A stretch of DNA of 64,000 bases from the IMG/VR virus record IMGVR_UViG_3300020718_000278, positions 18,586-82,585 of that record. The stretch is one strand, 5' to 3'. The notes under the pieces were generated by a model. The model saw nothing but the letters and a program-made list of their open reading frames with translations. It searched no databases and was not told the origin of the DNA. This DNA is from a virus (taxonomy: Duplodnaviria > Caudoviricetes). A program made the position numbers and the translations under genes. Of this stretch, positions 39,603 to 59,320 are shown piece by piece. The first letter of the stretch is position 1. Each line of letters begins with the position of its first letter.

Positions 39603-39603
39603 C

Positions 39604-43122: not shown

Positions 43123-43727
43123 GATAACCTTGCGTCTATAATAAAGTTAATTCTGTCTTGGCCACTATGATTTTCCAACCAATGTGGAACATGATTATTA
43201 ACCCAGTACAATGAATCGACATCAAGGACACAATCTTCATTTCTGATAGCAAAAATGTTATCTTCTGCGGCTGTTACTGTAAAATGAAATCGATCATAGT
43301 AACTAAAATATCTACCTTCATCTGTGTGTAAATCTACAGTTGAATGAGCAGCCAATTTACTTACAAAAATCCTGCCAAACTCTACTTGTTTAGCTCCTGT
43401 TTTTAGCAAGGTCTCTTCAAACCATTCTATTGATTTTTTAAAAATAGGTAAATCGGCGGTCACAGATTGAGTAACCATCATGTGCTGATTTGTTTGTAAA
43501 GTGTTTAGCCCTGGCGGCAAATCTTTTAAATATCTTAAGTGAATTGTTTCTGTGTAGCGCAATGCGTGGGTTACTGTTTGTCTATGCGTACTAAGTTTCC
43601 ACAAAAATGCGGTACTCGCATCATTGAAATAATTTCTTAATTCGTTGCCTAGCTCTGCATTAGTGTCTAGTTTAAAACTATTCAAATCTTCTTCAAAAAA
43701 TTTATAAGGACTTACTAAACAATTCAT
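43119..43727 (-). CDS. Aspartyl/asparaginyl beta-hydroxylase-like 2OG-Fe(II) oxygenase
   Basis: GRIFVSKL......LHTDEG.Y....DRFH; WVNNHVPHWLEN....RINFIID. Confidence 0.8.
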   Translation of the reverse strand: MNCLVSPYKFFEEDLNSFKLDTNAELGNELRNYFNDASTAFLWKLSTHRQTVTHALRYTETIHLRYLKDLPPGLNTLQTNQHMMVTQSVTADLPIFKKSIEWFEETLLKTGAKQVEFGRIFVSKLAAHSTVDLHTDEGRYFSYYDRFHFTVTAAEDNIFAIRNEDCVLDVDSLYWVNNHVPHWLENHSGQDRINFIIDARLS

Positions 43728-44323
43728 AGATAACCTCCAACTGGGGTATCTTTACGATATTCTCTTTTTAAGTATGTACAACGAATAACAGTATCGGTTG
43801 GTAACAAAATACGACTGAATAAAATAGTCCAGAAATTTTGATGTATACATTTAGTTTTTGCTGGTACTATGCATTCATCGAAATAATCATATCTTTCTCT
43901 AGCTTCTTTACTAAAGGCAAATCGTCTTAACAATTTGCCGTGTTTTTCTGACCACAAGGTATAAAATCTATATCTACCTTGTTTTTCATTATATTCCATG
44001 GCAGCATCTAACAATTTGCGTACATAACTTCTATTGTTTGTAGAACGAATCATAGTACCATACCATACTGGTTCGTTAGGACTAAGATAAAAAGATATTA
44101 ATGCTATAATTTTACCATCATCATCTTGTAATCCTAATGCTTTATATCGAACAAGCCCTGACAAATATGTTTCCACAAATGAACTGTGATATATTTTCTC
44201 AATAGGATTTTTTTCTGTTGGCACAAAATAACTAGCGTGTAAGTCTGTGCCCATAAAATTTTTAGTATAGAACAAATGCACAACCGCATCGATATGAGTA
44301 TGGTCTAATTCTATAATTTTCAT
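43724..44323 (-). CDS. GNAT-like protein
   Basis: N-terminal IIELDHTHIDAVVHLF, ALGL...GKIIALISF strands, RKLLDAAMEYNEKQG...F helix-strand. Confidence 0.45.
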   Translation of the reverse strand: MKIIELDHTHIDAVVHLFYTKNFMGTDLHASYFVPTEKNPIEKIYHSSFVETYLSGLVRYKALGLQDDDGKIIALISFYLSPNEPVWYGTMIRSTNNRSYVRKLLDAAMEYNEKQGRYRFYTLWSEKHGKLLRRFAFSKEARERYDYFDECIVPAKTKCIHQNFWTILFSRILLPTDTVIRCTYLKREYRKDTPVGGYL

Positions 44324-45237
44324 ATTTCGCCTCTTAATTGTTTTAATGCTAAGTCGTATGGAACTCCATCCAAACTAAACTCTAATCTTTTAACTTGGTC
44401 AAACCCAATGTCTTCGTATGCTTGGCCATTGAATGCTAACAAACTTTCAAAACCATGTTTCTTTTCTTTTTTTCTAAATTGTGAATACATTTTTTCTAGT
44501 ATAGCATTTTTACTTGATGCTGCTGTTAGTTTATAGTTATATTTGTCTGTTACTAATTTTTTAATACCGTCTGATTCTAAGTAATATAATAGTAATTCGG
44601 GGGTATAGCTATACCATTCGTTAACTAATGGAAGATTATACTTTAAACTAAATCGCATAGCACTAGCATCTTCATTTTCTCGAAACGCATAATACCAATA
44701 ACTACCTGCGGGTTCAACTTGTCTTGTCACTCCAGCTTCGCCGCCCATGACAGCTGGCTGTCCTAACTTTAATATATTTTTGTAAACCATAATATAGGTT
44801 AGCTGAGTACTTTGAATTTGCTCGCCAAACTCAGTAGCTTCGCCTGAAAAGAAAAAATCGTGTACATTAAAATCTATAATTTGAAGTTTAACTCCTAGTT
44901 CAGCAGCAATAGCTTCGGCCTCGGCGACTTCACTGGCATTATAGTTATTTTCAAATCTAATTACCGCACATTGCGGCTTGAACCCGTTATGTATGAAATT
45001 ACGCAATACAATTTCACTGTCAGTACCACCTGATAAAAATAGTATAAGATCCTTACCAAAGTCTTCGCGAACTAACTGTGCTGTTCTGTGTAGTTCTTCT
45101 TCGAAAGAGCTTGTACGATATTGATCTGGGTCAACAGCTCCTAACGAAACAACAAATTTCTCAACAGGTGTTTCCCGGTAGCCGTATTCTCTGCCACCAA
45201 TTGTATATTTTAAATGATTCTGATATGTAAAATACAT
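44320..45237 (-). CDS. PP-loop (adenine nucleotide alpha-hydrolase) protein, short subfamily B
   Basis: LFLSGGTDSEIV; VMGGE; WYSYTPELLLYYL; K.KKHGFE. Confidence 0.75.
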   Translation of the reverse strand: MYFTYQNHLKYTIGGREYGYRETPVEKFVVSLGAVDPDQYRTSSFEEELHRTAQLVREDFGKDLILFLSGGTDSEIVLRNFIHNGFKPQCAVIRFENNYNASEVAEAEAIAAELGVKLQIIDFNVHDFFFSGEATEFGEQIQSTQLTYIMVYKNILKLGQPAVMGGEAGVTRQVEPAGSYWYYAFRENEDASAMRFSLKYNLPLVNEWYSYTPELLLYYLESDGIKKLVTDKYNYKLTAASSKNAILEKMYSQFRKKEKKHGFESLLAFNGQAYEDIGFDQVKRLEFSLDGVPYDLALKQLRGEI

Positions 45238-46055
45238 TAGCCCTTGCGATCAGCAAATATTTTTTGTCTACTTTCCTTAGTAGCAATCAATGGTACAAAG
45301 AATAAACTTGAATCCCATTCAGACTTCTTACCACTTACTGTAGTGCCGAAGTCATAGGCGCTTGCCTTTTCGTGATGATTATTATGCCAACCTTGACCCC
45401 AAGTAATCCACGCAAGAAATGGAACATTTCTACTTTGATCTTTAGTTTCAAAATTTCTATAACCAAACTCTGGTGTATGACAAAATACATTAATATTACT
45501 TTCCATATACAAGCTCAATGCCGCTGGCACAATAAATCCAAACAACAATAACTGCCAAGAAATTAACCCAACAATAATGTAAGTTCCTAGTACAATCCAA
45601 TTATAGTGTTTAGCAATCCAAACGTGCATAGGATCTTTGAGTAAGTCTATAGCAAACTTAGGATTGAAATATTGATCCCAGTCGTATAACCAACTATGCC
45701 AAGCGTACCACCAGCCTTTAGTAGGACTATGCGCATCCTTTTCTGTGTCGGAGTATCTGTGATGGCTGCCACGGTGTATTGCCGCCCATCCTAGCGGGCT
45801 ACCTTGTAAACTTAAACAGGATAACCAAAGCACGATTGGTTTTAACCCCCATCGTAATTCGATAGCCCGATGGCTTACATAACGATGTAACCCAACAGCA
45901 ACACCTAATCCTTCGATGAGTATCCAACCGATTAACACTTCTAAAGCATTGATCCATGTGAAATCAAAAAATATCAAATAAGCAAGTGTGCCAAACCAGG
46001 CAACAGCATGAATAGGATACAAGACATAGTAAAGGAAGGAATTTGTTTTAGGCAT
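45237..46055 (-). CDS. Membrane fatty-acid desaturase (delta-9-like)
   Basis: Three His boxes HRYVSH, HRGSHH and HNNHH plus hydrophobic segments; DAHSP and GWWYAW. Confidence 0.9.
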   Translation of the reverse strand: MPKTNSFLYYVLYPIHAVAWFGTLAYLIFFDFTWINALEVLIGWILIEGLGVAVGLHRYVSHRAIELRWGLKPIVLWLSCLSLQGSPLGWAAIHRGSHHRYSDTEKDAHSPTKGWWYAWHSWLYDWDQYFNPKFAIDLLKDPMHVWIAKHYNWIVLGTYIIVGLISWQLLLFGFIVPAALSLYMESNINVFCHTPEFGYRNFETKDQSRNVPFLAWITWGQGWHNNHHEKASAYDFGTTVSGKKSEWDSSLFFVPLIATKESRQKIFADRKG

Positions 46056-46060
46056 AGCTT

Positions 46061-46074
46061 TATTTAAGTAAATA
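46061..46074. promoter_or_regulatory. Back-to-back divergent late promoters TATTTA-AG-TAAATA
   Basis: Inverted TAAATA cores 5 nt from ATG 46055 (-) and 7 nt from ATG 46082 (+) in a 26-bp gap. Confidence 0.65.
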
Positions 46075-46081
46075 TCACACG

Positions 46082-46663
46082 ATGATAAAAATAATCGACT
46101 TCTCTACCAGATTTGATAACGTATTGTGGACCGATTGCCAAAAATATATTTTGGAATCAACTGACGAACTCAAAGACAATTATATTAATCTAGATCCGCG
46201 TGAGTTTGTTTCTTTTCCGGTTGTAATAATCGATAATAAAGTTGTTTGTTTTAGTGCGTTACAAATCAACGAAGAACGTTGGGGCAAGGGTATTGGAAGA
46301 TGTAGTACTAGAATGTGGATTCATCCGGATTATAGACATGGATTAACCAAATTTAATGGCGGAAACAAATTTCTTAATACTACTTACTGCTTGCCTTTAC
46401 AATTAGCAGCCGCTAAACTAAACAACTTAGACTGTGTATTTATTAGTAGAGAACATAACTTATTGGGGTTCGCCGAGTACTCGAAGTTAATCAAGATTAA
46501 CTGCAACACTGGTTTTTTACTCGAATCTAAAAAATACAATGTGTGCGGTTCATTGGATCCAGTGCCTGATAGTTGTAAACAATGGGTCATGATACATTAT
46601 TTGACAGATAGTGGCGAAGAATGTTGGAATAGGAATATGAAAAAATATGTTTTACAAGAATAA
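46082..46663 (+). CDS. GNAT-like protein
   Basis: VIIDNKVVCFSAL, GRCSTRMWIHPDYR (motif A-like), QLAAAKLNNLDCVFISRE. Confidence 0.6.
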   Translation: MIKIIDFSTRFDNVLWTDCQKYILESTDELKDNYINLDPREFVSFPVVIIDNKVVCFSALQINEERWGKGIGRCSTRMWIHPDYRHGLTKFNGGNKFLNTTYCLPLQLAAAKLNNLDCVFISREHNLLGFAEYSKLIKINCNTGFLLESKKYNVCGSLDPVPDSCKQWVMIHYLTDSGEECWNRNMKKYVLQE

Positions 46664-47573
46664 TTGGTTTTCGTGGACGTATGACAACGGTCCGGAGTAT
46701 GGACCAAAGTTACACCCAACTGCCGAATTTAAAATAATACTTAGAAATACTATCAATCGTCCTTTGAAAAGTTATTATGAGGAATTATTGGAAAACGGTA
46801 GAGTTATTAGAGATACATTTTCTGGCCCTCTTGATTTATTGTTTTCGGGCGGGGTAGATAGTGAAATTATTTTAAGAGTCTATAAAGATTTGGGTATACC
46901 GATTAATGTTTATATTTTTAAATATGAAAATGGTTATAACCTTCCAGAATATACTCAAGCACTTAAGACTTGTACTGATCTAAATGTTACTCCTAAGATT
47001 ATAGACTTTAATTTACAAAAGTTTTTTGAAAATGAAGCATACGATATACAACAAAAAGTTTTTGCTGTAGAATCAGGGCGATTGCCACATATGAAGTTAA
47101 CTGAGTATTGCGATGGCTTACCTATTATAGGTAGTGGTGAACCATATATTAGACGCACAAGTCGAAATATGAATAAAAAATATCCTTGGGTGTTTGAATT
47201 AGATGAAAAGTGTCATCACTGGTCGGTATATCATAAGACTATAAATCGTCCTTGTATAACTGATTGGTATGAATATTCACCTGAGCTAATCTTATCTTAT
47301 TTTAATTTACCTTTTGCACAAAAATTATTAAATGACGAAGTACCAGGAAAATTATCAAATGAATCTACCAAATGTCAGATACACCAAGAGTATTGGCCTG
47401 ATTTAGACTTGCGACAAAAATTAGTAGGATTTGAAGGCCCGGAACCTGATAAATCTAAACCACTGGTTCAACCGTTTATGCTAGAATTTGGAAAAGAACA
47501 TATTCGTGGAGTCGTTACCGCAAAGTCCTACACTTTTTCAAAAGAGGAATTATTCAAGCAAATTGGATCATAG
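46647..47573 (+). CDS. PP-loop protein, short subfamily B
   Basis: LLFSGGVDSEII; IIGSGEP; WYEYSPELILSY; RQKLVGFE. Confidence 0.75.
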   Translation: MFYKNNWFSWTYDNGPEYGPKLHPTAEFKIILRNTINRPLKSYYEELLENGRVIRDTFSGPLDLLFSGGVDSEIILRVYKDLGIPINVYIFKYENGYNLPEYTQALKTCTDLNVTPKIIDFNLQKFFENEAYDIQQKVFAVESGRLPHMKLTEYCDGLPIIGSGEPYIRRTSRNMNKKYPWVFELDEKCHHWSVYHKTINRPCITDWYEYSPELILSYFNLPFAQKLLNDEVPGKLSNESTKCQIHQEYWPDLDLRQKLVGFEGPEPDKSKPLVQPFMLEFGKEHIRGVVTAKSYTFSKEELFKQIGS

Positions 47574-47576
47574 TAC

Positions 47577-47605
47577 TTGACAAATACAGCTTGATCTGTT
47601 ATAAT
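47577..47605 (+). promoter_or_regulatory. Consensus sigma70 promoter with extended -10
   Basis: TTGACA-17 bp-TATAAT with TGn immediately before the -10. Confidence 0.88.
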
Positions 47606-47617
47606 TTAACATAATTT

Positions 47618-48505
47618 ATGATGAATAACACTAAAAATAATTATATTCGTGCTACCGGTAGTGGAAAAACTTGGCAATTAAATATGGATCCATTGCCTAC
47701 TAGAGTTGATAATTATTTTATCGAAAGTTGCCGAGCTGCGGAAGAAATTTATGATGTTCGACAAGGTAAAGTGCATATTATGTACAGCGGCGGCATTGAT
47801 AGTGAACATGCGTTAAGTACTTTTTTACATTTAGGCATGGATATTATACCGGTGATTATTAAACTTAATAAAGGCCACAATGATCATGACACTAGCTACG
47901 CATTTAAGTTTTGCGAATTAAAAAATATTCAACCATTAGTAATAGATATCGACTTTGATCATTTTGTAAAGTCGGGCAAGATGTTTGAAATACAACAAGT
48001 TATAAAAACTTCTATGTTTGCTCGTACATGGTTTGCCTATGCAGCTGAACAATTGCCTGGTACTGTTATTTTTGGCGACGGAGAGCCACATATTATTAAA
48101 CACCCAACTACAAATGACTGGTATTTTGATATGTACGAATACGAATTTACAGTATCTAATTATTTTCAACTTAAAGGCATTCACGGAACGGCAAATGGCT
48201 TTAGTTGCTATCGTCCAGAACAAACTGCATCTTTTTTAATTGATCCTGCAATGAAACAACTTGCAAATAATCAAATGCCAGGATTAACAGAATCATCTAC
48301 AATCAAGCTCGATGTCTATAATCGATATAGTAAGTATAATTTAGAAGTTAGGCCAAAATATTATGGTTACGAGTATTTGCGAGAAAGTGATTTGGCTCAG
48401 GAGGCTAGAAAAGAATTTGCAAAGATTATTGAAGCTGGTAAACAGTGGAACGGAAAATCGTTCAAAGAATATAATACATTAACAAAGGATATTGAGTATG
48501 TTTAA
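47618..48505 (+). CDS. PP-loop protein, short subfamily B
   Basis: IMYSGGIDSEHA; IFGDGEP; YRPEQTASFL; RPKYYGYE. Confidence 0.75.
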   Translation: MMNNTKNNYIRATGSGKTWQLNMDPLPTRVDNYFIESCRAAEEIYDVRQGKVHIMYSGGIDSEHALSTFLHLGMDIIPVIIKLNKGHNDHDTSYAFKFCELKNIQPLVIDIDFDHFVKSGKMFEIQQVIKTSMFARTWFAYAAEQLPGTVIFGDGEPHIIKHPTTNDWYFDMYEYEFTVSNYFQLKGIHGTANGFSCYRPEQTASFLIDPAMKQLANNQMPGLTESSTIKLDVYNRYSKYNLEVRPKYYGYEYLRESDLAQEARKEFAKIIEAGKQWNGKSFKEYNTLTKDIEYV

Positions 48506-49379
48506 AAATGCACCTAATATATTTGCTCATATATCGGCGTTAAAAAATGGACACTTTGTAGTACAAGATGAAATTATTTTTAACAACAATGGTCAATATA
48601 CTATAAAAAGCAGAGAATGCCCGCATCGCGGATACATTATGCAAGAACCGGGCGATGTTGTAAAAACTGTTGTATGTAAGATGCACGGATTTGCCTGGGA
48701 CAATGAAGGAAAACCATTAGATAATATAGCTGAACCATGTCGCAATCATTTTTATAAACTTTCGCATCACGGTGAATTAGAAGCAGGCAAGACCGGGGTA
48801 TTGTTTCATAATTTTAAAGAACAACCAGGTTCTGAGTGGGCTCGAGAATTATCTAAAATAACTGATTTAGAATTTGTTAAGACTGTATCAGGTGAAAGTC
48901 CTGGCAGTCGACTATGGATGATGGAACAATTAACAGATGTACTTCATTTCAAACAAAATGGAGTACACCCTAGACAGAGTTTAGAAACTCCAATGGACTT
49001 GTTAGAACAAACATTAGAAGAAGGCTGTTCAGTACAGAAAAATACCAATGTAAACGGTGTTGTGGGTTATTGGGTGTTTATATATCCTGGGTATGGCATC
49101 GAATTTGAACCAGGTAAATTAACTATTACTAGAATAATACCCAAAGACAACAAAGAAGAATTTGGATTTTACTGGGAAATGCAATTTTATTATTCACCGT
49201 GGGTAGATAAAAACGAAAGAGCTGAATGGGAAAAGAATATTGAAACATACTACGAAGATGTAACTGCGGTTGAAAAAATTAAACGCCCTTACTTCCCACT
49301 AAAGAAAATGGTTAACAAATTTGAAGAGCAGATGTACGATTGGGGACAGTGGTATATTAAAAATAAAACGAAAGTTTAA
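48498..49379 (+). CDS. Rieske non-heme iron oxygenase alpha-subunit-like protein
   Basis: CPHRG...CKMHGFAWD Rieske ligands; WMMEQLTDVLHF...VH and ED...E mononuclear-iron pattern. Confidence 0.82.
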   Translation: MFKNAPNIFAHISALKNGHFVVQDEIIFNNNGQYTIKSRECPHRGYIMQEPGDVVKTVVCKMHGFAWDNEGKPLDNIAEPCRNHFYKLSHHGELEAGKTGVLFHNFKEQPGSEWARELSKITDLEFVKTVSGESPGSRLWMMEQLTDVLHFKQNGVHPRQSLETPMDLLEQTLEEGCSVQKNTNVNGVVGYWVFIYPGYGIEFEPGKLTITRIIPKDNKEEFGFYWEMQFYYSPWVDKNERAEWEKNIETYYEDVTAVEKIKRPYFPLKKMVNKFEEQMYDWGQWYIKNKTKV

Positions 49380-49789
49380 ATTTCAGATTTAACACCCCAT
49401 TTAACCTGTTGCCAAACTCGTTCGTGTATGTAATAAACAACTGCGGTAATAAGATTTTTCGTAATTCCTATGTTTAATGCAGTCATAAAGTTACCAATGA
49501 CGGCCCACTTAGTCAAAGTTCCAACAGTAAAAATCCATACTTTATAGGTAATTGTTTTTACAGCAGTTCGTTTGTTACTTTCTTTATGGTCTACTATGGA
49601 CCACTGTAACTTAGACCATACATATTCGTGAATATAAAATCCAATAAATGTAGTAGTACTATTGGCTATTACTACAAATAGTGCAGTTTCTTTACTACCT
49701 GTAAAAAATAATGCAGTAAAATATCCTACAGTCATTGCTAATATTTTAAAGGTAACTGCCTTGGCAAATATTCTTTTTTGTGTATCCAT
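49376..49789 (-). CDS. Small membrane protein, tandem DUF2061-like repeats
   Basis: Two copies of KR...KA+T+K....Y+HE.+W....W. Confidence 0.72.
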   Translation of the reverse strand: MDTQKRIFAKAVTFKILAMTVGYFTALFFTGSKETALFVVIANSTTTFIGFYIHEYVWSKLQWSIVDHKESNKRTAVKTITYKVWIFTVGTLTKWAVIGNFMTALNIGITKNLITAVVYYIHERVWQQVKWGVKSEI

Positions 49790-50928
49790 TATTTAAAAGT
49801 TCCAATATAGTAAAGAGGAGAAATACAAATTCTTTGTTTTAACAACCCACTAAATGCGTTTGTATGAACATTTTTAGTCCACTCATCAAAATAATATTGC
49901 CAACGATCAATCCATGGCTGTATTTCTTTGACTTTGAGATAGTACTTATCGCGTTCTCTAGCAACTGAATTAAATTCGTTGGCTCTTCCAGCTTGAAATT
50001 TTGTATGATCCCAGGTTGAATAAATCATTTGTTTTTGTATGGTTATCATTTCCTGAGTTCTGTATGAATTTACTTTTTTTTGATTTTCTGCTTCGATTAA
50101 GTATCTTTGATCGGTGTGTTTTTGAAAATAATCAAACAAACGATACGCCTGCTCAAATGGCAGTTCAGGCATGTCTATTGCCCAATAAAATAATTCATTG
50201 TTTACATCAACCCCTTCTAATTTGTCAAGTACTACAGATGACCCGTCAGTAAATATCATAGAACAAGTATTGCCTATTTTAAGAATACTTGGTTTGTCTA
50301 TGCCAAAAATGTTAGCAACTGATTTTCCTTTATGCAATAATTCTTTCTGATTATTTGAATATGCTTTTCTACGGAGTAATTCAAAGAGAGAAACATATTG
50401 CCCAGCATTGATAAAAGTATCATCGTTAACTACTTCCTCAATAGGTGTTTTAAACATATCTGAAACTGTAATTTTAATTTCTGGATGATTTGTTGCCAGC
50501 CATTGTAGTACTGGTTTAGTAACATAATCCCATTCTGAAAAAATATTCTCGGCACCTTTTATGTAAGTGTTTGGTGTATAGATTTTTGATTCAATTTCTT
50601 CACTACGAAAGGTACAGATTTCATCTAATTTAATACCATTGTTAATAAAAGTCATTAGTATGTTGTGACTATCCGATCCACCTGAATAGTGTAAAATTAA
50701 ATAATCATACTTGTCGCGTAGTTGTTGAGCACGGGCCGCATACAGTTTATCTAAATTAGTAGTACCTAGCTTGTCCTTATGAGTACTAGCAAAGTTAGCC
50801 CATAAGTCGTCATGGAATATCCATTTTAACGGTTCTTTAAATTTTGTCGCATGAAGTAGGGCCTGAGACTTACTAGTAAAATTAAAATCTCCAACAGTAT
50901 AATACCCTAATGTAGTTTCTTGAAAAAT
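49789..50928 (-). CDS. PP-loop protein, long subfamily A (379 aa); apparent ATT start, track ORF truncated at 50655
   Basis: Frame open from 50940; hand translation gives IFQETTLGYYTVGDFNFTSK...WIFHDD...LDKLYAARAQQLRDKYDYLILHYSGGSDSHN, colinear with its paralogues; GGAG 7 nt before ATT. Confidence 0.75.
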   Translation of the reverse strand: MFQETTLGYYTVGDFNFTSKSQALLHATKFKEPLKWIFHDDLWANFASTHKDKLGTTNLDKLYAARAQQLRDKYDYLILHYSGGSDSHNILMTFINNGIKLDEICTFRSEEIESKIYTPNTYIKGAENIFSEWDYVTKPVLQWLATNHPEIKITVSDMFKTPIEEVVNDDTFINAGQYVSLFELLRRKAYSNNQKELLHKGKSVANIFGIDKPSILKIGNTCSMIFTDGSSVVLDKLEGVDVNNELFYWAIDMPELPFEQAYRLFDYFQKHTDQRYLIEAENQKKVNSYRTQEMITIQKQMIYSTWDHTKFQAGRANEFNSVARERDKYYLKVKEIQPWIDRWQYYFDEWTKNVHTNAFSGLLKQRICISPLYYIGTFK

Positions 50929-50940
50929 AAAATATCTCCG

Positions 50941-52146
50941 TTAGATAATTGATACTGGAAGGCCAAATTTATAAGTTTCGCCAATCTTGTAATATTTCAT
51001 ACTTAGATTAAACTTTATTGGCAAATTAGTTTTATGATCAGTAGTGTAATATTTCTGATCTATACCGTTGAAAAATAACTTAAAATCAGATTTCATCATT
51101 TGCCAGGTAGCGGTATCTTTGTGAAGTTTTTCAAACCAAGCATCATGTTGTGCAAAAAATGCCGTGGTAGGTTTTTTTGCTTGGAATACTTTTTTATCCA
51201 ACATTGGATATATAGCCGGTACTATACCTCTTTCAAAAAATCCTGCTTCCCAGTTTGGATCAGTTTCCCAACGCCAACCTTTGCTAATTTTTGGAATTAT
51301 ATTTTTACTATTGTATATCATATTATTATACAAATGTAAATTTTCAGCACGACTAATATAACGAGCTGTTACATGGGCTTGTTTAACCATGAGCCTTGGT
51401 AAATCACCGTTGTAATAAAATAATTCAACAGATGCCATTGGATGGTCTAATGCTGGAAAACCGTTGTTAACTAAAATATCTCTAAATAACACATAATAAG
51501 AATTTTTATGTTCTACAAGGCATGGTTTATCTAAACCATACAAGAAACAAATTCGTTTACCACTATCGGCAATTTTCTTTAAATGATTATATTCATCTCG
51601 TTCTAAACGATAGCGAGCGGCAAAAGTAGGATGAATGTAACTGCCTGATTTCCACAGCCATTCATCGGTTTTGTATTCAAGCATATCTTCAAAGTAATCG
51701 TGTATAGTTACTTTTACTGTAGGATGCTTAATAGCTATTTCTTTTAATTCTGGCAGTTGTGCTAATCTTGTTTCGCTAATTGTGTTTTCTGCTCGAGTAT
51801 CGTTAGTATCTTGCCAATTTTTGAGACCTGATACTGGTGCGCCGGCTACTATTTCATCTAAATATATATTATTTTTTAAAAAACTATATACCATATTAGT
51901 GCTATCGGCTCCGCCACTAAAAAAAGCTACTATGTAATCGTACTTGTCTCTTAATTGTTGTGCTCGTTGTCGATATAATTCATCTAAACTATCAGTAGGC
52001 TCATCTGTCCAGTCCGTGGCTTTATAAACATCGTCGTGAAAATACCAGTCTATATTGGCTTTAGTTTTATTAGCCTCGTATATAGCAGCTACTTTTTCTA
52101 AAATTATTTGGCCGTTAACTGTATAGTATCCGGTATTAAATGACAT
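50941..52146 (-). CDS. PP-loop protein, long subfamily A
   Basis: GYYTVNG...WYFHDD...LDELYRQRAQQLRDKYDY...FSGGADSTN; YGLDKP. Confidence 0.78.
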   Translation of the reverse strand: MSFNTGYYTVNGQIILEKVAAIYEANKTKANIDWYFHDDVYKATDWTDEPTDSLDELYRQRAQQLRDKYDYIVAFFSGGADSTNMVYSFLKNNIYLDEIVAGAPVSGLKNWQDTNDTRAENTISETRLAQLPELKEIAIKHPTVKVTIHDYFEDMLEYKTDEWLWKSGSYIHPTFAARYRLERDEYNHLKKIADSGKRICFLYGLDKPCLVEHKNSYYVLFRDILVNNGFPALDHPMASVELFYYNGDLPRLMVKQAHVTARYISRAENLHLYNNMIYNSKNIIPKISKGWRWETDPNWEAGFFERGIVPAIYPMLDKKVFQAKKPTTAFFAQHDAWFEKLHKDTATWQMMKSDFKLFFNGIDQKYYTTDHKTNLPIKFNLSMKYYKIGETYKFGLPVSII

Positions 52147-53498
52147 TATTTTTTAATTAGTTTGGCAGCAATTATACAACTTAACAGTGATAAAACTAAA
52201 CCATATGACACAAAATACATATCATATGTTGGATTTTTTAATAATCTACCCATCCAAGAAATATATAATGCGCCGCTAATAGTTACAATACTGCCATAAA
52301 ATACAACAACTTCTTTCATTTTTATCTGATAAATTTGAAAAACCATTGGAATAAACATACTAGCACGAACTGCGCTCATAAACATAAAAATTGACCATAC
52401 TTCAACTTTACTCCAACTTATTAACCAAGCTATTAAAAAGAATACTACCATAATAATACGAACACTAGTAGTATCTTCTTTTTTAATCCATTCTCTACTA
52501 ATAAGACTACCGATGTAATTTAAGCAACTGTCTATTACGGTACTAGTTTGTCCAATTAATAACACACCAAATGCTGTAATTGCCAGTGGTCCATATAAAT
52601 CCATAATTCCAACTAAACTACTTAATTCAGGCGCCTTAAGTTCTAAAGCATGGGCTTGTGCGTATAGTCCAAAGGAACCTAACGCAAATACCATGGCCGA
52701 AAATAAAAAGAAAGCAATAATATAGCTAGGCCAGATATTTTCTTTAGGCATACTAAATGATTTTTGCCAGAATGCTCCGTGACTTGCTGAACCTAGTAAT
52801 ATACCACCTAAGTAAGCTAACCCAAATGTAGTTAAAAATTTATCGTTGAATACTGTAGTAAGATTATTTTTGCCAAATACGGAATAATCAAAACCACCTT
52901 TAAGCATTCCAAACAACATAATTCCTAAAAACAAGAACCATAAAGTGGTTTGCACAACTCCAGTGTAAATGCTTGTGCGGATACCGCCTTTTGCTGTAAA
53001 CGCCAATGTAATTAATCCAACAGTTAAACTAGCATATATTGGATCAACAACTGCGCCTACACCGGCAAACGCAAAAAATTTGTTAATAGCAGTAAACGCT
53101 AACAATATACCCGCTAGTGAAACAATAGTAAATGAAATTTGATAAAAAATACTAACACGACGACTAAAATTAGTTTTAATATACTCGGTCAACGAATAGC
53201 CATCGGGGTATAAATTACGAATACGATATGTTAATGCGGCTGTAATAATTAAACAAAATGCGTTAGGTAATACAAACCATATTAGTCCAATAATTCCCCA
53301 ATTATACGCTGCAGCTGGGGCAATAAACAATGCTATAGCCCAAAACCAATGACTATTAATAGCCATAGCCGACGATACAAGTTTAAGAGATCTATTTGCG
53401 TATAAAAAGTTAGTGGGCGTATTTGCCCAAACTTTACCTACATAAAAAAAATATACAAAAAAAGAAAATAAAAATACTAAAGAAATTTCAAAAATCAT
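52146..53498 (-). CDS. Sodium:solute symporter-family transporter (SSS, urea/proline-type)
   Basis: About 12-13 hydrophobic segments; NFLYANRSL, AAAYNWGIIG, GGIRTSIYTGVVQ, STVIDSCL. Confidence 0.82.
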   Translation of the reverse strand: MIFEISLVFLFSFFVYFFYVGKVWANTPTNFLYANRSLKLVSSAMAINSHWFWAIALFIAPAAAYNWGIIGLIWFVLPNAFCLIITAALTYRIRNLYPDGYSLTEYIKTNFSRRVSIFYQISFTIVSLAGILLAFTAINKFFAFAGVGAVVDPIYASLTVGLITLAFTAKGGIRTSIYTGVVQTTLWFLFLGIMLFGMLKGGFDYSVFGKNNLTTVFNDKFLTTFGLAYLGGILLGSASHGAFWQKSFSMPKENIWPSYIIAFFLFSAMVFALGSFGLYAQAHALELKAPELSSLVGIMDLYGPLAITAFGVLLIGQTSTVIDSCLNYIGSLISREWIKKEDTTSVRIIMVVFFLIAWLISWSKVEVWSIFMFMSAVRASMFIPMVFQIYQIKMKEVVVFYGSIVTISGALYISWMGRLLKNPTYDMYFVSYGLVLSLLSCIIAAKLIKK

Positions 53499-53574
53499 TG
53501 CGCACCTTTAAATTATAATGTATATATCCTATAATAGCCTACACTACAAATTTTAAAGATGTTGAATTTTTAAT

Positions 53575-53880
53575 TTACGATATAGTTTCGTTAAGAGTAG
53601 AAGTAATGCCATTGGCTTTATTGTATGCTACTCTAGCTACTTGCTCTGGTAGTTTAGCACGGGCTGACATCCAATTAGCATAATTTTCTACAGTATCAAA
53701 AATGATTGCTGCCTGTCTAGTATCTGAAGTAGGATTTGTTGTTGTTTGACTAATAAATCCTGGTTGTGATTTAGTAAATGCGTTGATTGCATCGGTTAAT
53801 GCTTTATTAGCATCAGAACTTTGAGGGAAAAACTGAACCCCGCTAGGTTTAGTAGAATTAATTGTTAAAGTAACCGCCAT
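53575..53880 (-). CDS. 101-aa late protein, possible ABM-like barrel or small virion protein
   Basis: Strong AGGAG SD, own TAAATA; QPGFIS...AIIFDTVENYANW resembles the ABM motif. Confidence 0.55.
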   Translation of the reverse strand: MAVTLTINSTKPSGVQFFPQSSDANKALTDAINAFTKSQPGFISQTTTNPTSDTRQAAIIFDTVENYANWMSARAKLPEQVARVAYNKANGITSTLNETIS

Positions 53881-53903
53881 GTTAATAACTCCTATTAATA
53901 TGT

Positions 53904-53909
53904 TATTTA
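53904..53909 (-). promoter_or_regulatory. Late promoter core TAAATA
   Basis: acTAAATA in the gap upstream of the SD of the 101-aa gene. Confidence 0.6.
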
Positions 53910-53917
53910 GTGTAAAT

Positions 53918-54991
53918 CTAACTTAATTTGAATAGTTTTTCAGCATTACGAAAAGCTATATTTTCTATATCTTGTTGAGAAAGCCCGGAAGCGTATAAAT
54001 CGCTAGTATCTTTCCACTTGTTTAATCCGCTAGGGTCGTGGTGTGGATAATCTGTACTAAACAGTAATCGTTTTGGACCAACATATTCCATTAAAACATT
54101 AAAACTAGGCTTCATTTCTATGTCAATAGTAAAATATATATTTTCTTTGATATAACTAAAAGGATGATTTTTACATTTATATAGACTTGGATCACGAGTA
54201 TAAGACTCTGCTATATTCTTCAAAATTTTGCCTATCATTAGTTGGGCGCCTTCTGTTAGTATTATTTGAAGTTTTGGATGTCGGTCGAATATATTGTCAG
54301 ATAATAAATCATAAACGCCCATCTCTAATCGACCTACAGGTTTATTATTTGCAATAAGTTTAATGCGTTCTGGTAAAGAATATGCTATATCGTGCTGCAT
54401 TGAAAAATGCGTGAATATAACAATATCATTCTTTTCACACATATCGTAAAATTCCTCCATACGGTCGATGACTGACCACGGGACATCTCCTTTTGTAGTA
54501 GGATCGTACACAGTATAATGTAAGTATGCTACTTTAAAATTATTATCAATAGCCCACTGTAATTCTAACAATGCCATATCCATATCTTGAAATGGCAGTA
54601 ATGCGACCCCAAAGAATCTGTCTGGATATTGATCTACGATATTTTTAACTACTATATTATAGCTATGGGCCATGGCAGCTCCAAGATTTTTTTCGGTTGA
54701 ATAGTTAAACCTCATAGCTCGCTCCTGCGGAGCAAGCAATTGCATATCAACTTTCATCTTTGCTAAATCTTTAAATCTTTCGACTATGTTAGTAAGCCCG
54801 TATAAATCGCAATGAAGTGTATCTGGTTTGCTGTCGGTTTTGTTTATAATTGGATCTTTAGCATATTGTATATCAAACAATCTACCATCTTTATCAAAAA
54901 ATAGCTTAGGCAAATCTTGTTTAAGGTTGTCTGGCACAAAGTCAAATATTTCTGGGGGAATAATATGACTGTCACAATCGATTATTTTCAT
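53918..54991 (-). CDS. Amidohydrolase_2-family metal-dependent hydrolase/decarboxylase
   Basis: IIDCDSH, RFFGVALLP.QD...A..EL, FTH, HP.LQIILTEG, RLLFSTDYPH. Confidence 0.88.
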   Translation of the reverse strand: MKIIDCDSHIIPPEIFDFVPDNLKQDLPKLFFDKDGRLFDIQYAKDPIINKTDSKPDTLHCDLYGLTNIVERFKDLAKMKVDMQLLAPQERAMRFNYSTEKNLGAAMAHSYNIVVKNIVDQYPDRFFGVALLPFQDMDMALLELQWAIDNNFKVAYLHYTVYDPTTKGDVPWSVIDRMEEFYDMCEKNDIVIFTHFSMQHDIAYSLPERIKLIANNKPVGRLEMGVYDLLSDNIFDRHPKLQIILTEGAQLMIGKILKNIAESYTRDPSLYKCKNHPFSYIKENIYFTIDIEMKPSFNVLMEYVGPKRLLFSTDYPHHDPSGLNKWKDTSDLYASGLSQQDIENIAFRNAEKLFKLS

Positions 54992-54995
54992 ATAA

Positions 54996-55874
54996 TTATT
55001 TAGCTACCCATTTTTTATAAGTAGGGACTATTACTCGTTCTACGTAATCAGACTTTCGATTCATATCAACATTGTATCCTTGATTTTTAAAATATTCGTA
55101 ACGGTTAGCTTTTACAAATCCAACAGTTAGAGCGTCTGATAAATTGCGAAAATCTGTAGTATCGCGATTAACTGCCATGCTAAAAAAGTTAACTAAATTT
55201 GCTGTAGGAGCATATTTGTGTAAACTAGGCACATCGTCTATAGAGTCAGCTTGTGCAACTCCTAAAATACGAACCGCTTGTTCTTTTTGTTTAAAGAATC
55301 CATACGCATCTGATTGCATATCAACATGACCACCTAACAATGCTGTATAAGCTTCAGAACTTCCTTTAAATCTTATTGCTTGTATATCGTGATGACTATA
55401 TTTTTTTATTTCTTCAACTAACATATTATGAGATTCACCGGCAACAGCAATATTAATTCGCTGTCTTGGTATGGTCTTGTCAAACAACGCACTCAATGAT
55501 TTAAATTTACTTTTAGAACTAACACCTATTGCTAGCGGGCTGGACAATACTGGTCCAACGAATCTTAATTTATCAATAAAATTATTTTCAGGATTGACTA
55601 TAGCTTCAAATAGTATTTGCCCGCCTGAAATTCCCAAAGCTATTTTAGCAGAAGGTGGTTGAGCAAAAAAACTTTTTAAGGCAATGACACCATTTGCTCC
55701 TGGTTTATTTTCTACTATAAATTTAAAATCAGTATTAGCTTCGGCATCGGCAGTAAGAATTCTAATAATAGTATCGGTTCCGCCCGGACCGTAGCCTACG
55801 GTAACAGTTACTTCGTTAGGAGCAGCTAAAACGGATGTAGTTAAAAATAGTAATGCTAAAAGTATTTTTTTCAT
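54996..55874 (-). CDS. Bug/TctC-family tripartite tricarboxylate transporter substrate-binding protein
   Basis: Signal peptide MKKILLALLFLTTSVLA; VGYGPGGTD...IVENKPGANG; FKGSSEAYTALLGGHVD. Confidence 0.85.
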   Translation of the reverse strand: MKKILLALLFLTTSVLAAPNEVTVTVGYGPGGTDTIIRILTADAEANTDFKFIVENKPGANGVIALKSFFAQPPSAKIALGISGGQILFEAIVNPENNFIDKLRFVGPVLSSPLAIGVSSKSKFKSLSALFDKTIPRQRINIAVAGESHNMLVEEIKKYSHHDIQAIRFKGSSEAYTALLGGHVDMQSDAYGFFKQKEQAVRILGVAQADSIDDVPSLHKYAPTANLVNFFSMAVNRDTTDFRNLSDALTVGFVKANRYEYFKNQGYNVDMNRKSDYVERVIVPTYKKWVAK

Positions 55875-55906
55875 ACTATTACTTATTTTGTTGCTTGAGT
55901 TGCCAT

Positions 55907-55932
55907 AAAAAAGCCCTCATTATGAGGGCTTT
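55907..55932 (-). terminator. Intrinsic terminator after dctP
   Basis: Minus strand AAAGCCCTCA-TAA-TGAGGGC-TTTTTT. Confidence 0.85.
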
Positions 55933-55952
55933 GATGTTATTACTAATGTTGT

Positions 55953-56909
55953 TTAAGCATTTTTGATACGATTAACCAAATTATCGGAAAAGTATGTAGT
56001 ATACTTGTCGTAGATTGGAGTCATCATAGATTTGAATTTAGCAACTTCTGCATCGTCCCACTTAATAACATTAACACCGTTGGCACGGCACTCTGCTTCA
56101 ACACGAACAGCATCTTCGACACTTTCGACACGCTCAATCTTAGCACTAGCTACCCCAGCGGCTTTCATAGCGGCTTGTTGTTCTTCTGTTAATGTATTCC
56201 AAAACTCGCGATTAACAATAATACTAGTACAAGAAATATTGTGCTCCATATCATTGATGAATGGTAATGCTTTGTCGTTGTTTAATGGATAGTAACGTGT
56301 GTAAGTACACTCGCCAGCTTCTACTTCACCGGACAATGTGCGTTCTGTTAATTCTTCAACTGGGAAGAATGTAGTTTCAGCACCTAACGCATCAAATGTG
56401 TCTTTGATAACTGGTCCACTACTAACACGGAACTTAACACCTTTAAAATCTTCTACACTAGCAATAGCTTTAGTAGCAGGAATAGTTCTATAACCACCGC
56501 TGTATGTAAATGCCAATGCCTTAATCTTTTCGCCACCTTCGGACTCTAATTTGCCTAAAAGTTCAGCACCAATTTCGCCATCAAACACACGAGCTGCATG
56601 GTCATGGTCTTTAAACAAGAATGGCATATCGATAACATTCAATGTGCGGGAATAACGATCCGCTAACCATGTTGTGTATAATTGACTTACTTGAATCTTG
56701 CCAGCTTCCATTAAATCTAATACATCTTTTTTGCCGACTGGAACGCCATTGTTGTACTTTTCACTGTATTCAGTGTCAGTAAGTACTTCAATTTCAATTT
56801 GTCCTGGTACACGCTCTTCCAAAGCATCTTTGAAAAATTTAGCAGCACGGATGAACAAATATGCTGGATCGTGGGCAATAACCCAGGTAATTTTTTTAGT
56901 TTGACTCAT
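55953..56909 (-). CDS. dctP: TRAP transporter substrate-binding protein DctP-like, no signal peptide
   Basis: DMPFLFKDHDHA, YSGGYR, EDFKGVKFRV, F.ALGA...P..E; start at 56909 after AAGGAGA. Confidence 0.88.
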   Translation of the reverse strand: MSQTKKITWVIAHDPAYLFIRAAKFFKDALEERVPGQIEIEVLTDTEYSEKYNNGVPVGKKDVLDLMEAGKIQVSQLYTTWLADRYSRTLNVIDMPFLFKDHDHAARVFDGEIGAELLGKLESEGGEKIKALAFTYSGGYRTIPATKAIASVEDFKGVKFRVSSGPVIKDTFDALGAETTFFPVEELTERTLSGEVEAGECTYTRYYPLNNDKALPFINDMEHNISCTSIIVNREFWNTLTEEQQAAMKAAGVASAKIERVESVEDAVRVEAECRANGVNVIKWDDAEVAKFKSMMTPIYDKYTTYFSDNLVNRIKNA

Positions 56910-56935
56910 TTTATCTCCTTTAGATAATACAGTAT

Positions 56936-56941
56936 TATTTA
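56936..56941 (-). promoter_or_regulatory. Late promoter core TAAATA upstream of dctP
   Basis: gcTAAATA in the gap upstream of the SD. Confidence 0.55.
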
Positions 56942-56963
56942 GCCTTTGCAAATAATTATATCC

Positions 56964-58145
56964 CTAAATTTGGGATGGTTTTATGTACAATTCTTTAAAT
57001 TTTTCTAAACTACCTATAACATAGGAGTTACGATAGTTTATAAAACCATTTTTATTACCCTTAGGAAACAGATATTTGGGGTTTATGGACTTGTAAAAAT
57101 TTTCAAAATCGCTAATTACTAATTGATTTATTCTAGTATCTTTGTGCAAATCGTGAAACCAATTATCATGATCCGCCATGAAGAAGTCCTTAGATTTTTT
57201 AGCTTGGAACACCTTAGTCATATCTAAATCTGGGTATATAATAGGAACAATAGCCCGTTGGTAGGAGCTGTTTTCGTATTGTGCCTTAACTTCTGGCGGA
57301 CTATCGTGATTAAACATAAGACCTTTTATGTATTCATATCTTGGTTGCAAATGAATAGCTTTAATAATTTCGTGAGATTGTTTTATTAATATTTCAGGCA
57401 TAGTAGGAGTTGAATAAAACAATACAATGTCCGCATTATCATAGAAATCTTCAAATGGTTGCCTTGGTACATTTACTCCCACATCATAAATTGTACTTAT
57501 AAAGTGACCCTTGATAAGTTGTACTTGAGGTTTTTCTGATCCATATATGATAGCAATTTTTTTACCTTGATCCGCTAGAGCCTTGAGGTGTTTTAGCTTA
57601 TCAAGTCTATACCTGGCGGCCGTAGTTGGGTGTACAAAATCAGAAGATTTCATGATCCACTCGTCCGTTTTAAACTCTAACATATTTTCAAAAAAGTCAT
57701 TAATTGAAATTTTTATCTCGGGATGATTTTGCGAAACTGTTTGTAACGCTGGCATTGTAGTAAGTAACCATTCGCTTGCGTTATTAGCAGAATTTGTATC
57801 TAGGCTTGCTTTGAAATCACGCAAACCTGATAAAGGAATACCTGCTACAATTTCATCTATCTTAATGTTATTGTTTAAAAAAGAATACAGTACATTTGTA
57901 CTATCTGCCCCGCCGCTGAACATAATTACTACATAATCGTATTCATCTCTAATCTGTTGAGCTCTAATTTTAAAAAGTTCGCGCAAAGATAATGTAGGTT
58001 CGATGCGCCAATCGACTTTTCTAAATTTATCTTGATGAAAATCCCAACTAATATCAGCACTTGTATGATTAGCTTCCAAGATAGCTTCTATCTTGTCAAA
58101 GAATATTTTTTCATTTACTTTATAGGATCCTAAATAGTCTTTCAT
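56964..58145 (-). CDS. PP-loop protein, long subfamily A
   Basis: LGSYKVN...WDFHQD...LRELFKIRAQQIRDEYDY...FSGGADSTN; YGSEKP. Confidence 0.78.
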   Translation of the reverse strand: MKDYLGSYKVNEKIFFDKIEAILEANHTSADISWDFHQDKFRKVDWRIEPTLSLRELFKIRAQQIRDEYDYVVIMFSGGADSTNVLYSFLNNNIKIDEIVAGIPLSGLRDFKASLDTNSANNASEWLLTTMPALQTVSQNHPEIKISINDFFENMLEFKTDEWIMKSSDFVHPTTAARYRLDKLKHLKALADQGKKIAIIYGSEKPQVQLIKGHFISTIYDVGVNVPRQPFEDFYDNADIVLFYSTPTMPEILIKQSHEIIKAIHLQPRYEYIKGLMFNHDSPPEVKAQYENSSYQRAIVPIIYPDLDMTKVFQAKKSKDFFMADHDNWFHDLHKDTRINQLVISDFENFYKSINPKYLFPKGNKNGFINYRNSYVIGSLEKFKELYIKPSQI

Positions 58146-59320
58146 GTAGTGAACTCCATAAATTTTGTATAATGTCCTATGTTATATCTTTGTCGAAATG
58201 TTATAAAGCTATTTTTGTTTAAACCAAGATACTTTGGGTGTATGTTTTTATAAAATAGTTTGAAATCACTTTCGACCATCTGATGTATGTGTGTTCCTTT
58301 GTGTAGGATATTAAACCAATCGTGTTGAGGCGACAAAAATGATATAGCTGATTTTTGACATTGAAATACATTATCATATGTTGTAGGATATATAGCTGGC
58401 ACAATGCTTCTTTGGTAATCACCTTTGACAGTACCTGCTTCTTGAATTCGGTCTTCATGCCATAATTTAACACCGCCCATTTGCTTAACTAAATCAGTTA
58501 ACCATAAGTTTTCTTTTTTATGAATGAACTTTGCTACAGCGTGGCTTTGTTTTACTAACATTTCTGGCAGTTCAGGTCCCCAGTAAAATATTACTCGACT
58601 AACATTAGGATAATCCTTATCAAAAGGTTGAACTGCGTTATTAACACCTAAATCTGTAATAAGTGTACATAGACTACCATCGTTGTTATATCTTATTATA
58701 GGTTTATCGATACCCCATACTATAGCAATGCGTTTTCCTTGTTCTGCTAAATCTTTAAGATGTTTAAATTTATTTAGATCTCCTTTAGCATTAATTACAG
58801 GATTGACCCAGTCTAAACATTCATATAACCATTTATCTGTTTGATATTTGGTAATATCTTCAAAGTAATCATTAATAGTAATTTTTATATTTGGAAAACT
58901 AGTTGCAATTTCGTTTAGCAACGGAAATAGCGCATATTTTGTTTCGCTAATAGTGTTACTAACTGAAGTATCTTTATCGTTCCAGTTCCAGTTATTCAAC
59001 CCTGACATTGGGGCAGAACCAATAATTTCATCTATATGTATGTTATTATTTAGAAAAGTTTTTACAACATTAGTACTATCGGCACCACCACTACACATGA
59101 TGATAACATAATCATAATCATTTCGAATTTGTTGAGCTCTGATTTTGTAAAGAGCATCCAATGAAAGTGAAGGTTCCTCCTGCCAATTAATACGATTGAA
59201 TGTATCGCAATGAAAGTCCCAAGTGACATCTGATAAGTTTGTTTGCGCCTCTAGTATTGCTTGAATTTTATTGGTAAATTTTTTACCATTAGCACTATAA
59301 TATCCTAGGTCAGCTGTCAT
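58142..59320 (-). CDS. PP-loop protein, long subfamily A
   Basis: LGYYSANG...WDFHCD...LDALYKIRAQQIRNDYDY...CSGGADSTN; WGIDKP. Confidence 0.78.
   Translation of the reverse strand: MTADLGYYSANGKKFTNKIQAILEAQTNLSDVTWDFHCDTFNRINWQEEPSLSLDALYKIRAQQIRNDYDYVIIMCSGGADSTNVVKTFLNNNIHIDEIIGSAPMSGLNNWNWNDKDTSVSNTISETKYALFPLLNEIATSFPNIKITINDYFEDITKYQTDKWLYECLDWVNPVINAKGDLNKFKHLKDLAEQGKRIAIVWGIDKPIIRYNNDGSLCTLITDLGVNNAVQPFDKDYPNVSRVIFYWGPELPEMLVKQSHAVAKFIHKKENLWLTDLVKQMGGVKLWHEDRIQEAGTVKGDYQRSIVPAIYPTTYDNVFQCQKSAISFLSPQHDWFNILHKGTHIHQMVESDFKLFYKNIHPKYLGLNKNSFITFRQRYNIGHYTKFMEFTT

Follow-up and report, generated by a model that had tools for sequence, protein, structure and literature searches.

Two almost exclusively viral families of AsnB-type PP-loop enzymes with different conserved partners in a phage contig

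Why a single phage would encode seven PP-loop enzymes, and whether these enzymes act together, is the question raised by a stretch of 64,000 nucleotides (the window, by which we mean this whole stretch throughout) that covers bases 18586-82585 of an 82.6-kb virus contig from IMG/VR. A preliminary description, made from the sequence alone, had reported seven SGGxDS-bearing paralogues in two subfamilies, here called family A (four copies) and family B (three copies), and had suggested that they are amide ligases operating as an assembly line. The division into two families holds. All seven open reading frames (ORFs) are present where that description had placed them, and each protein contains exactly once the SGGxDS(T) loop that, placed at the end of the first beta-strand of a Rossmann-like alpha/beta domain, characterizes the AANH/PP-loop ATP pyrophosphatase superfamily, as SGGADS in three copies and as SGGSDS, SGGTDS, SGGVDS or SGGIDS in one each. 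BLASTP E-values range from 2e-34 to 5e-116 within family A and from 7e-12 to 7e-30 within family B; paralogy within either family is far beyond chance. The two families are also related to each other beyond the PP-loop (hhalign probability 94.8%, E 5e-8, 178 columns). As detailed below, the seven proteins are AANH/PP-loop enzymes and represent new branches, specific to viruses, of the AsnB-type synthetase fold.

The motifs previously listed for each subfamily return as invariant alignment columns. In family A these are G5, Y7, K17 and A20, followed by W33, F35, H36 and D38, RAQQxRxxYDY, SGGxDSxN and GxxKP; in family B they are SGGxDSE, GE, YxPE and KxxGxE. Only the start of copy 4 of family A had to be corrected. 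The ATG at 50655 that the ORF finder had chosen yields 288 aa only, and no ATG, GTG or TTG lies ahead of the PP-loop. The frame remains open up to the TAA (50941-50943) of the neighboring paralogue, a GGAG precedes an ATT at 50928 by 7 nt, and orthologues at 80-87% identity begin with MKET. Either this ATT serves as start codon or the start codon has been lost.

The fold assignment comes from AlphaFold2 models, built from alignments of 75 (A) and 40 (B) sequences and predicted with a pLDDT (predicted local distance difference test score) of 95 and 88.8, respectively. While every PP-loop family is represented among the structural matches, the best match of the predicted models is the synthetase-domain fold of the AsnB group, its C-terminal subdomain included, which is how the structural comparison proposed in the preliminary description turned out. 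In the following list, Z is given first and the root-mean-square deviation (rmsd) last; the figure between them carries no label in the source table. The family B model matches human ASNS (9b6c; 14.9, 252, 4.0), E. coli AsnB (1ct9; 13.9, 252, 4.3), beta-lactam synthetase (1jgt; 13.9, 231, 3.7), carbapenam synthetase (1q15; 12.4, 240, 4.5) and TsnB9 (7ylz; 10.3, 246, 5.3), and the family A model matches E. coli AsnB (1ct9; 10.8, 283, 5.0). Structural alignment sets in at around residues 117-141 of AsnB, and the proteins, at 295-401 aa, are too short for an additional N-terminal nucleophile (Ntn) domain.

At the level of sequence, none of the seven falls into a characterized family with a known housekeeping role, a placement that would have spoken against the original idea. 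Scans with Pfam, NCBIfam and PHROG profiles gave no score over the cut-off, and for family A no match at all. Family B produced sub-threshold matches to fragments of about 70 residues of QueC, NadE, AsnB and MnmA around the PP-loop, among which Pfam QueC scored 14.6-21.4 bits (cut-off 22). The Pfam profile Asn_synthase (PF00733) scored 14.2 bits with copy 1 of family B (B1), against a cut-off of 21, and did not match the other six. Searching PDB sequences with the family profiles returned chance matches only for A and weak PP-loop matches for B. By hhalign, family B aligns with residues 210-349 of E. coli AsnB, SGGxDS included, at a low probability (12.6%), and in this same low-probability alignment the invariant G166-E167 of family B falls on G347-E348 of AsnB, where Glu348 is the catalytic acid of the SGEGSDE motif. 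For family A, hhalign aligned 15 columns with E. coli AsnB only; its invariant GxxKP comes with a conserved Asp/Glu whose register relative to Glu348 of AsnB is uncertain.

The pattern of cysteines narrows the possible chemistry. No cysteine follows Met1 in any of the seven proteins, as it would in an Ntn glutaminase, and there is no conserved cysteine column in either family (copy 2 of family A has no cysteine and B1 has one), in agreement with the earlier observation that a glutaminase domain and a QueC-type cysteine cluster are missing. Two candidate chemistries lose ground on this account. A QueC-type zinc site is excluded, as no cysteine is conserved and one copy (56964) is cysteine-free, and sulfur transfer of the MnmA/ThiI/TtuA/NcsA/LarE type is unlikely, as conserved catalytic or Fe-S cysteines are missing. 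Because a glutaminase domain and conserved cysteines are absent while fold and motifs are of the AsnB type, the most likely chemistry, as judged from sequences and models, involves a carboxylate that is first adenylated and then attacked by a nitrogen nucleophile. In all seven enzymes, the SGGxDS loop would bind ATP and the carboxyl group would be adenylated, giving an acyl-AMP and pyrophosphate; the nucleophile would then attack the acyl-AMP to form an amide. As the glutaminase domain is absent, this nucleophile is presumably free ammonia or an amine. The amide-ligase part of the preliminary description is thus plausible, the best structural relatives being amide-forming enzymes of the AsnB group.

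Both families are large and almost exclusively viral. A profile of the four A copies retrieved 1,667 50%-identity clusters, including 737 with E-values below 1e-30, and a search with B1 gave more than 750 matches among 90%-identity clusters. Database members are labeled 'hypothetical' or carry automatic PP-loop names; no member of either family has a name or known function. Relatives in BFVD and the ESM Atlas are 95-100% viral. Across prokaryotes, scanned with one genome for each of 185,579 species by a short-pattern approach that distant cellular relatives could escape, family A occurred in two contigs of metagenome-assembled genomes only (Nanopelagicales and Polynucleobacter, both freshwater taxa). 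Among cultured phages (50,697 records, a collection from which related ones may be missing), neither tblastn with A and B nor megablast with the region gave a match. The four A copies of the window represent four separate clades of the family A tree, each with orthologues in other phages. Mean pairwise identity within family A is 42% in the ATP-binding half and 29% in the C-terminal half, the latter being the half that forms the substrate site in AsnB. The paralogues are old and divergent, which fits the use of different substrates. The positions of the seven genes and of their neighbors are given in Table 1.

Table 1. PP-loop genes of families A and B and neighboring genes in the window (positions in the window).
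Feature	Position	Strand	Remarks
TauD-like gene	42244-43122	-	Pfam; oxygenase downstream of P199
Asp/Arg-hydroxylase-like gene	43119-43727	-	Pfam; oxygenase downstream of P199
P199	43724..44323	-	199 aa, no known family; translationally coupled to B1
Family B copy 1 (B1)	44320..45237	-	305 aa; AsnB-type synthetase domain; core of desaturase-B-P199 module
Membrane fatty-acid desaturase-like protein	45237..46055	-	Pfam FA_desaturase 7.5e-16; coupled to B1
P193	46082..46663	+	193 aa; upstream of family B copy 2, divergent from desaturase gene; no Pfam match
Family B copy 2	46647..47573	+	308 aa
Family B copy 3	47618..48505	+	295 aa
Family A copy 4	49789..50928	-	379 aa if ATT 50928-50926 is the start; deep separate clade
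Family A copy 3	50941..52146	-	401 aa; start shares base 52146 with end of upstream permease gene
Genes between the two A pairs	52146..54991	-	permease, 101-aa ORF, Amidohydro_2 protein
Remote sodium:solute-symporter-like permease	52146-53498	-	
Amidohydro_2 protein	53918-54991	-	
TctC/Bug-family solute-binding protein	54996..55874	-	Pfam TctC 5e-10; signal peptide
DctP-family (TRAP) solute-binding-like protein	55953..56909	-	Pfam DctP 3.6e-45; no signal peptide
Family A copy 2	56964..58145	-	393 aa; no cysteine; 4-nt overlap with copy 1
Family A copy 1	58142..59320	-	392 aa; stand-alone AsnB-type PP-loop synthetase domain; SGGADS at residue 77

The gene neighborhoods were compared in 80 IMG/VR loci centered on a family A homologue, in which ORFs were called and clustered (counts over 81 loci). 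The most common neighbor families of A are TctC-like (53 of 81 loci) and DctP-like (41 of 81) solute-binding proteins. For 79 out of 123 A genes, a TctC-like or DctP-like gene is at most 2.5 kb away, a linkage that spans several deep A clades, and the gene that comes next on that strand is most often TctC-like (n = 32), another A gene (n = 16) or DctP-like (n = 15). Copy 2, for instance, lies directly upstream of the DctP-like gene and has an orthologue with the same neighbors in another locus (L007). Based on a simple rule for a hydrophobic stretch at the N-terminus, 55 of 69 TctC-like proteins start with a signal-like sequence, compared to none of the 37 DctP-like proteins. The DctP-like proteins are true TRAP members, both by Pfam and by a PDB profile search (E-values down to 7e-43), and 27 of 31 homologues retain the two arginines with a carboxylate-binding role in TRAP proteins (PMC11668362). 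Among the solved structures closest to them are those of proteins that bind galacturonate, glucuronate, pantoate and erythronate (PMC11668362). A further invariant arginine of the DctP-like proteins, R205, is part of a TYPR motif. Both the TctC-like and the DctP-like family are specialized for carboxylic acids, which is the substrate class of an adenylating synthetase. The permease and amidohydrolase genes between the two A pairs of the window are not among the frequent neighbor clusters of A. In six loci (L008, L011, L012, L017, L026 and L033), genes for a cytochrome P450 (394 aa) and a 319-aa protein, together with a 104-aa gene present once or twice, sit between or beside family A genes.

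These partners may also be read in terms of host nitrogen metabolism, with the A enzymes as ammonia-dependent substitutes for asparagine or glutamine synthetase that enhance the assimilation of nitrogen, with imported dicarboxylates or amino acids as starting material. The AsnB-type fold would fit such a role. TctC/Bug and DctP proteins, moreover, often bind aspartate, glutamate or C4-dicarboxylates. Nonetheless, we regard this reading as very improbable. The genomes carry two to four deeply divergent A paralogues, family A has no sequence similarity to AsnB outside the PP-loop and is hardly ever found in cellular genomes (2 of 185,579 species), and the sugar-acid, pantoate and erythronate binders mentioned above are among the closest solved relatives of the DctP-like protein (PMC11668362).

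Family B keeps different company. In the corresponding sample of 80 loci centered on a B homologue, mostly orthologues of B1 (counts again over 81 loci), P199 is present in 74 loci, nearly always just downstream of B, and the desaturase gene in 71. The usual core order is either 'B – P199 – desaturase' or 'desaturase – B – P199'. The histidine boxes of the desaturase, as read from its sequence, are presumably those of the delta-9 acyl-CoA/lipid desaturase (stearoyl-CoA desaturase, SCD) type. P199 matched neither Pfam nor PDB entries, and a GNAT/DUF1999 fold is a language-model lead only. P193 occurs in 20 B loci, with the same divergent arrangement in most of them, and the oxygenase genes downstream of P199 recur as well (Asp/Arg-hydroxylase-like in 50 of 81 loci, TauD-like in 30 of 81). 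In addition, a phosphopantetheine carrier protein of 74 aa (Pfam PP-binding with 31.1 bits, the cut-off being 20.8; consensus LGLDSL) is encoded in 35 of the 81 loci, typically directly upstream of B. This carrier gene (in loci within L106-L158, e.g., L151:7762-7983 (+)) is preceded by a gene for a 182-aa protein of no known family. Some loci (L022, L111, L118, L141-L143 and L005) contain up to five tandem desaturase-like paralogues beside B genes, often accompanied by a B12-binding radical-SAM gene.

The gene context of B1 points to acyl or carrier-bound chemistry. B1 would work with P199 and the membrane desaturase of presumed delta-9 type, joined in many relatives by the carrier protein, and given these partners it may act on a carrier-bound or lipid-like carboxylate. 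Both formation of an amide on such a tethered acid and loading of the carrier are compatible with this context. In the latter case, adenylation would not lead to an amide at all: the phosphopantetheine thiol of the carrier would capture the acyl-AMP, with B as the loading enzyme, or else nitriles, hydroxamates or esters would be made. The position of the carrier gene in those 35 loci suits this alternative, as do the related solved enzymes TsnB9, which forms hydroxamates, and the nitrile synthetase ArtA. We consider it unlikely nonetheless, since carrier loading is not known to us from any enzyme of the AsnB group, and a carrier gene was found neither in the window nor in over half of the B loci.

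The radical-SAM and oxygenase genes near B could also indicate modification of a ribosomal peptide or a virion protein, as in ribosomally synthesized and post-translationally modified peptides (RiPPs), where enzymes resembling lasso cyclases or beta-lactam synthetase would form amide bonds and radical-SAM/SPASM enzymes and hydroxylases would further tailor that peptide. Nearby are three radical-SAM genes (one of them encoding a SPASM domain) as well as the TauD-like and Asp/Arg-hydroxylase-like genes, partners of the radical-SAM and hydroxylase type recur near B in relatives, and lasso cyclases and beta-lactam synthetase fall in the same structural group. The fit to the other partners is poorer, and we judge this explanation quite unlikely. 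A carrier protein and a fatty-acid desaturase as core partners of B are typical of acyl rather than peptide chemistry, those of A are binding proteins for small carboxylates, and among the annotated neighbors we noticed neither a precursor peptide nor a leader-recognition protein nor a lasso-type (transglutaminase-like) leader protease, although no search was aimed at these. As to the radical-SAM genes themselves, the three stand in a row (37409-40908, + strand), and in the third the SPASM-type domain is N-terminal (residues 8-80), before the radical-SAM core (126-322).

Whether the two families work in one pathway can be judged from their distribution over larger genomes. Four relatives of 317-357 kb were searched (G001-G004; three of them 97-100% complete, the fourth 89%), and these contain two to three copies of A and none of B. 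A complete relative of 524.6 kb contains two A copies along with about six B-like copies. Since A and B differ in their partners and occur independently of each other, a single assembly line of seven enzymes, as proposed in the preliminary description, is not supported, and parallel modules with substrate-specialized paralogues fit better. In one of the complete relatives (357 kb), one family A copy has an in-frame TAA (G002:C1:116389-117537 (-)).

Taken together, our joint explanation is that the seven proteins are AsnB-type amide-forming synthetases that belong to two modules, one of A enzymes with binding proteins and one of B1 with P199 and the desaturase, and we give it about an even chance of being correct. 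In the A module, the secreted TctC-like protein would make use of a membrane transporter of the host and thereby increase uptake of an organic acid, the cytoplasmic DctP-like protein would keep this or a similar acid bound, and the A enzymes would convert it, with the divergent clades taking different acids or amines. Several points weigh against this explanation. Sequence similarity between A and AsnB is confined to the PP-loop, so that the match is one of predicted structure with a moderate Z (10.8, rmsd 5.0), and an equivalent of the catalytic Glu is aligned in B only. Enzymes of the AsnB group also close rings or make hydroxamates, and nitriles are products of other PP-loop enzymes; an amide with a free amine is thus only one of several possible outcomes. 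None of the membrane components TctAB and DctQM was seen in the window, and synteny alone does not show that the partners are linked physically or metabolically. A carrier protein gene is also missing from the window and its contig (16% of the genome). A more specific version is tentative and, in our estimate, rather doubtful. Here, A and the signal-less DctP-like protein would constitute a cytoplasmic 'binding-protein-dependent enzyme' system of large aquatic phages, in which the TctC-like protein hijacks a host transporter and the DctP-like protein hands the acid to the ligase for amidation or amine conjugation, while B would separately build an amide-containing, lipid-like product on the carrier protein.

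The genomic background is that of a large phage sampled in part, as CheckV estimates the completeness of the source contig at 16% (84% of the genome is unsampled). The window encodes T4-type proteins, i.e., a gp47-like SbcD, a gp55-like late sigma factor, a baseplate hub and a baseplate wedge, and its G+C content is 32-41%. Because these genes are also found in relatives of 344-357 kb and 524.6 kb with a completeness rating of 97-100%, the phage is probably a member of a group of very large T4-like phages. A pmoC gene was not found in the large relatives, and control genomes likewise gave nothing. Two further genes of the window stand out by their products. A lone ORF of 5,067 aa (13767-28970, + strand) directly follows the gp6-like baseplate wedge gene, and a 606-aa protein without Pfam match (59327-61147, - strand) consists in part of 4-5 tandem repeats of about 65-70 aa (W-Y-L-D-x-K-F...D-K-V-W) and is encoded next to an NAD-dependent epimerase gene. 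For a phage group of 350-520 kb, the family B module of carrier protein, ligase and desaturase points to lipid-like biosynthesis, and the linkage of A to one secreted and one cytoplasmic binding protein offers a concrete route to its substrate through the ligands of these proteins. What is new with respect to the preliminary description is that both families are large, nearly restricted to viruses and associated with different conserved partners.

Another explanation, hypermodification of DNA or another nucleic acid, has a recent precedent. CmoY of Synechococcus phage S-B43, an ATP-dependent AsnB homologue without glutaminase, ligates glycine to 5-carboxymethylcytosine in DNA, and many diverse ligase clusters with unknown amines have been reported alongside (PMC12783734). 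Ligases like CmoY could join amines to a carboxyl group on phage DNA or to a deazaguanine carboxylate, the paralogues installing different amides. We located CmoY in the S-B43 genome as an ORF of 271 aa, a stand-alone Asn_synthase-domain protein that scores 52.5 bits with the Pfam profile, over its cut-off. Hhalign aligns it with A and B over 29-61 columns around the PP-loop at probabilities of 5-36%, and the family B profile found nothing in the S-B43 genome. Neither a CmoA (Cx-SAM synthase) over the cut-off nor a C5-methyltransferase, the enzyme type of which CmoX is a homologue, was found in the contig or in the four relatives of 317-357 kb. All four relatives do contain a QueD-type (PTPS) gene, which the contig of the window does not, and 13 A-centered loci contain a QueE-like radical-SAM gene that was named by motif only and has no Pfam match. 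As these genes are present and no QueC over the cut-off was found in the four relatives, a 7-carboxy-7-deazaguanine intermediate could exist. However, nothing was found in support of a deazaguanine carboxylate as substrate, a search of the same four genomes for tRNA-guanine transglycosylase (TGT)/DpdA found none, and the binding-protein, carrier-protein and membrane-desaturase partners are left unexplained. We therefore deem hypermodification improbable. As a model for the seven enzymes, a CmoY-type DNA ligase is not supported, given that the similarity is restricted to the PP-loop and the partner genes were not found in the contig or the four relatives.

Compared with known systems, families A and B share SGGxDS with the AsnB group (AsnB/ASNS, beta-lactam and carbapenam synthetases, TsnB9), and the Gly-Glu of family B aligns, at low probability, with Glu348 of AsnB. 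They differ from this group in that the N-terminal Ntn glutaminase is missing, identity is only 8-14%, the Pfam Asn_synthase match is below the cut-off or absent, and occurrence is almost limited to viruses. With CmoY, they have in common that they are AsnB-like proteins without glutaminase domain encoded by T4-like phages, yet CmoY passes the Pfam Asn_synthase cut-off, which A and B do not, and its partners cmoA and cmoX were found neither here nor in the complete relatives searched. As this recent phage AsnB-like ligase turned out to make a new DNA modification (PMC12783734), families A and B may hold further new chemistry. QueC and QueC-like phage proteins are the best sub-threshold Pfam and PHROG matches of family B, in the PP-loop region only, but A and B do not have their Zn-binding cysteine cluster. 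Finally, the partners of family A are true members, by Pfam, of the binding proteins of the TRAP (DctP) and TTT (TctC/Bug) systems, and the DctP-like proteins keep the carboxylate arginines. Unlike in TRAP systems, the phage DctP-like proteins have no signal peptide and are linked to an adenylating enzyme instead of DctQM genes. If the DctP-like protein indeed serves family A, a binding protein would here have been recruited by an enzyme rather than by a transporter.

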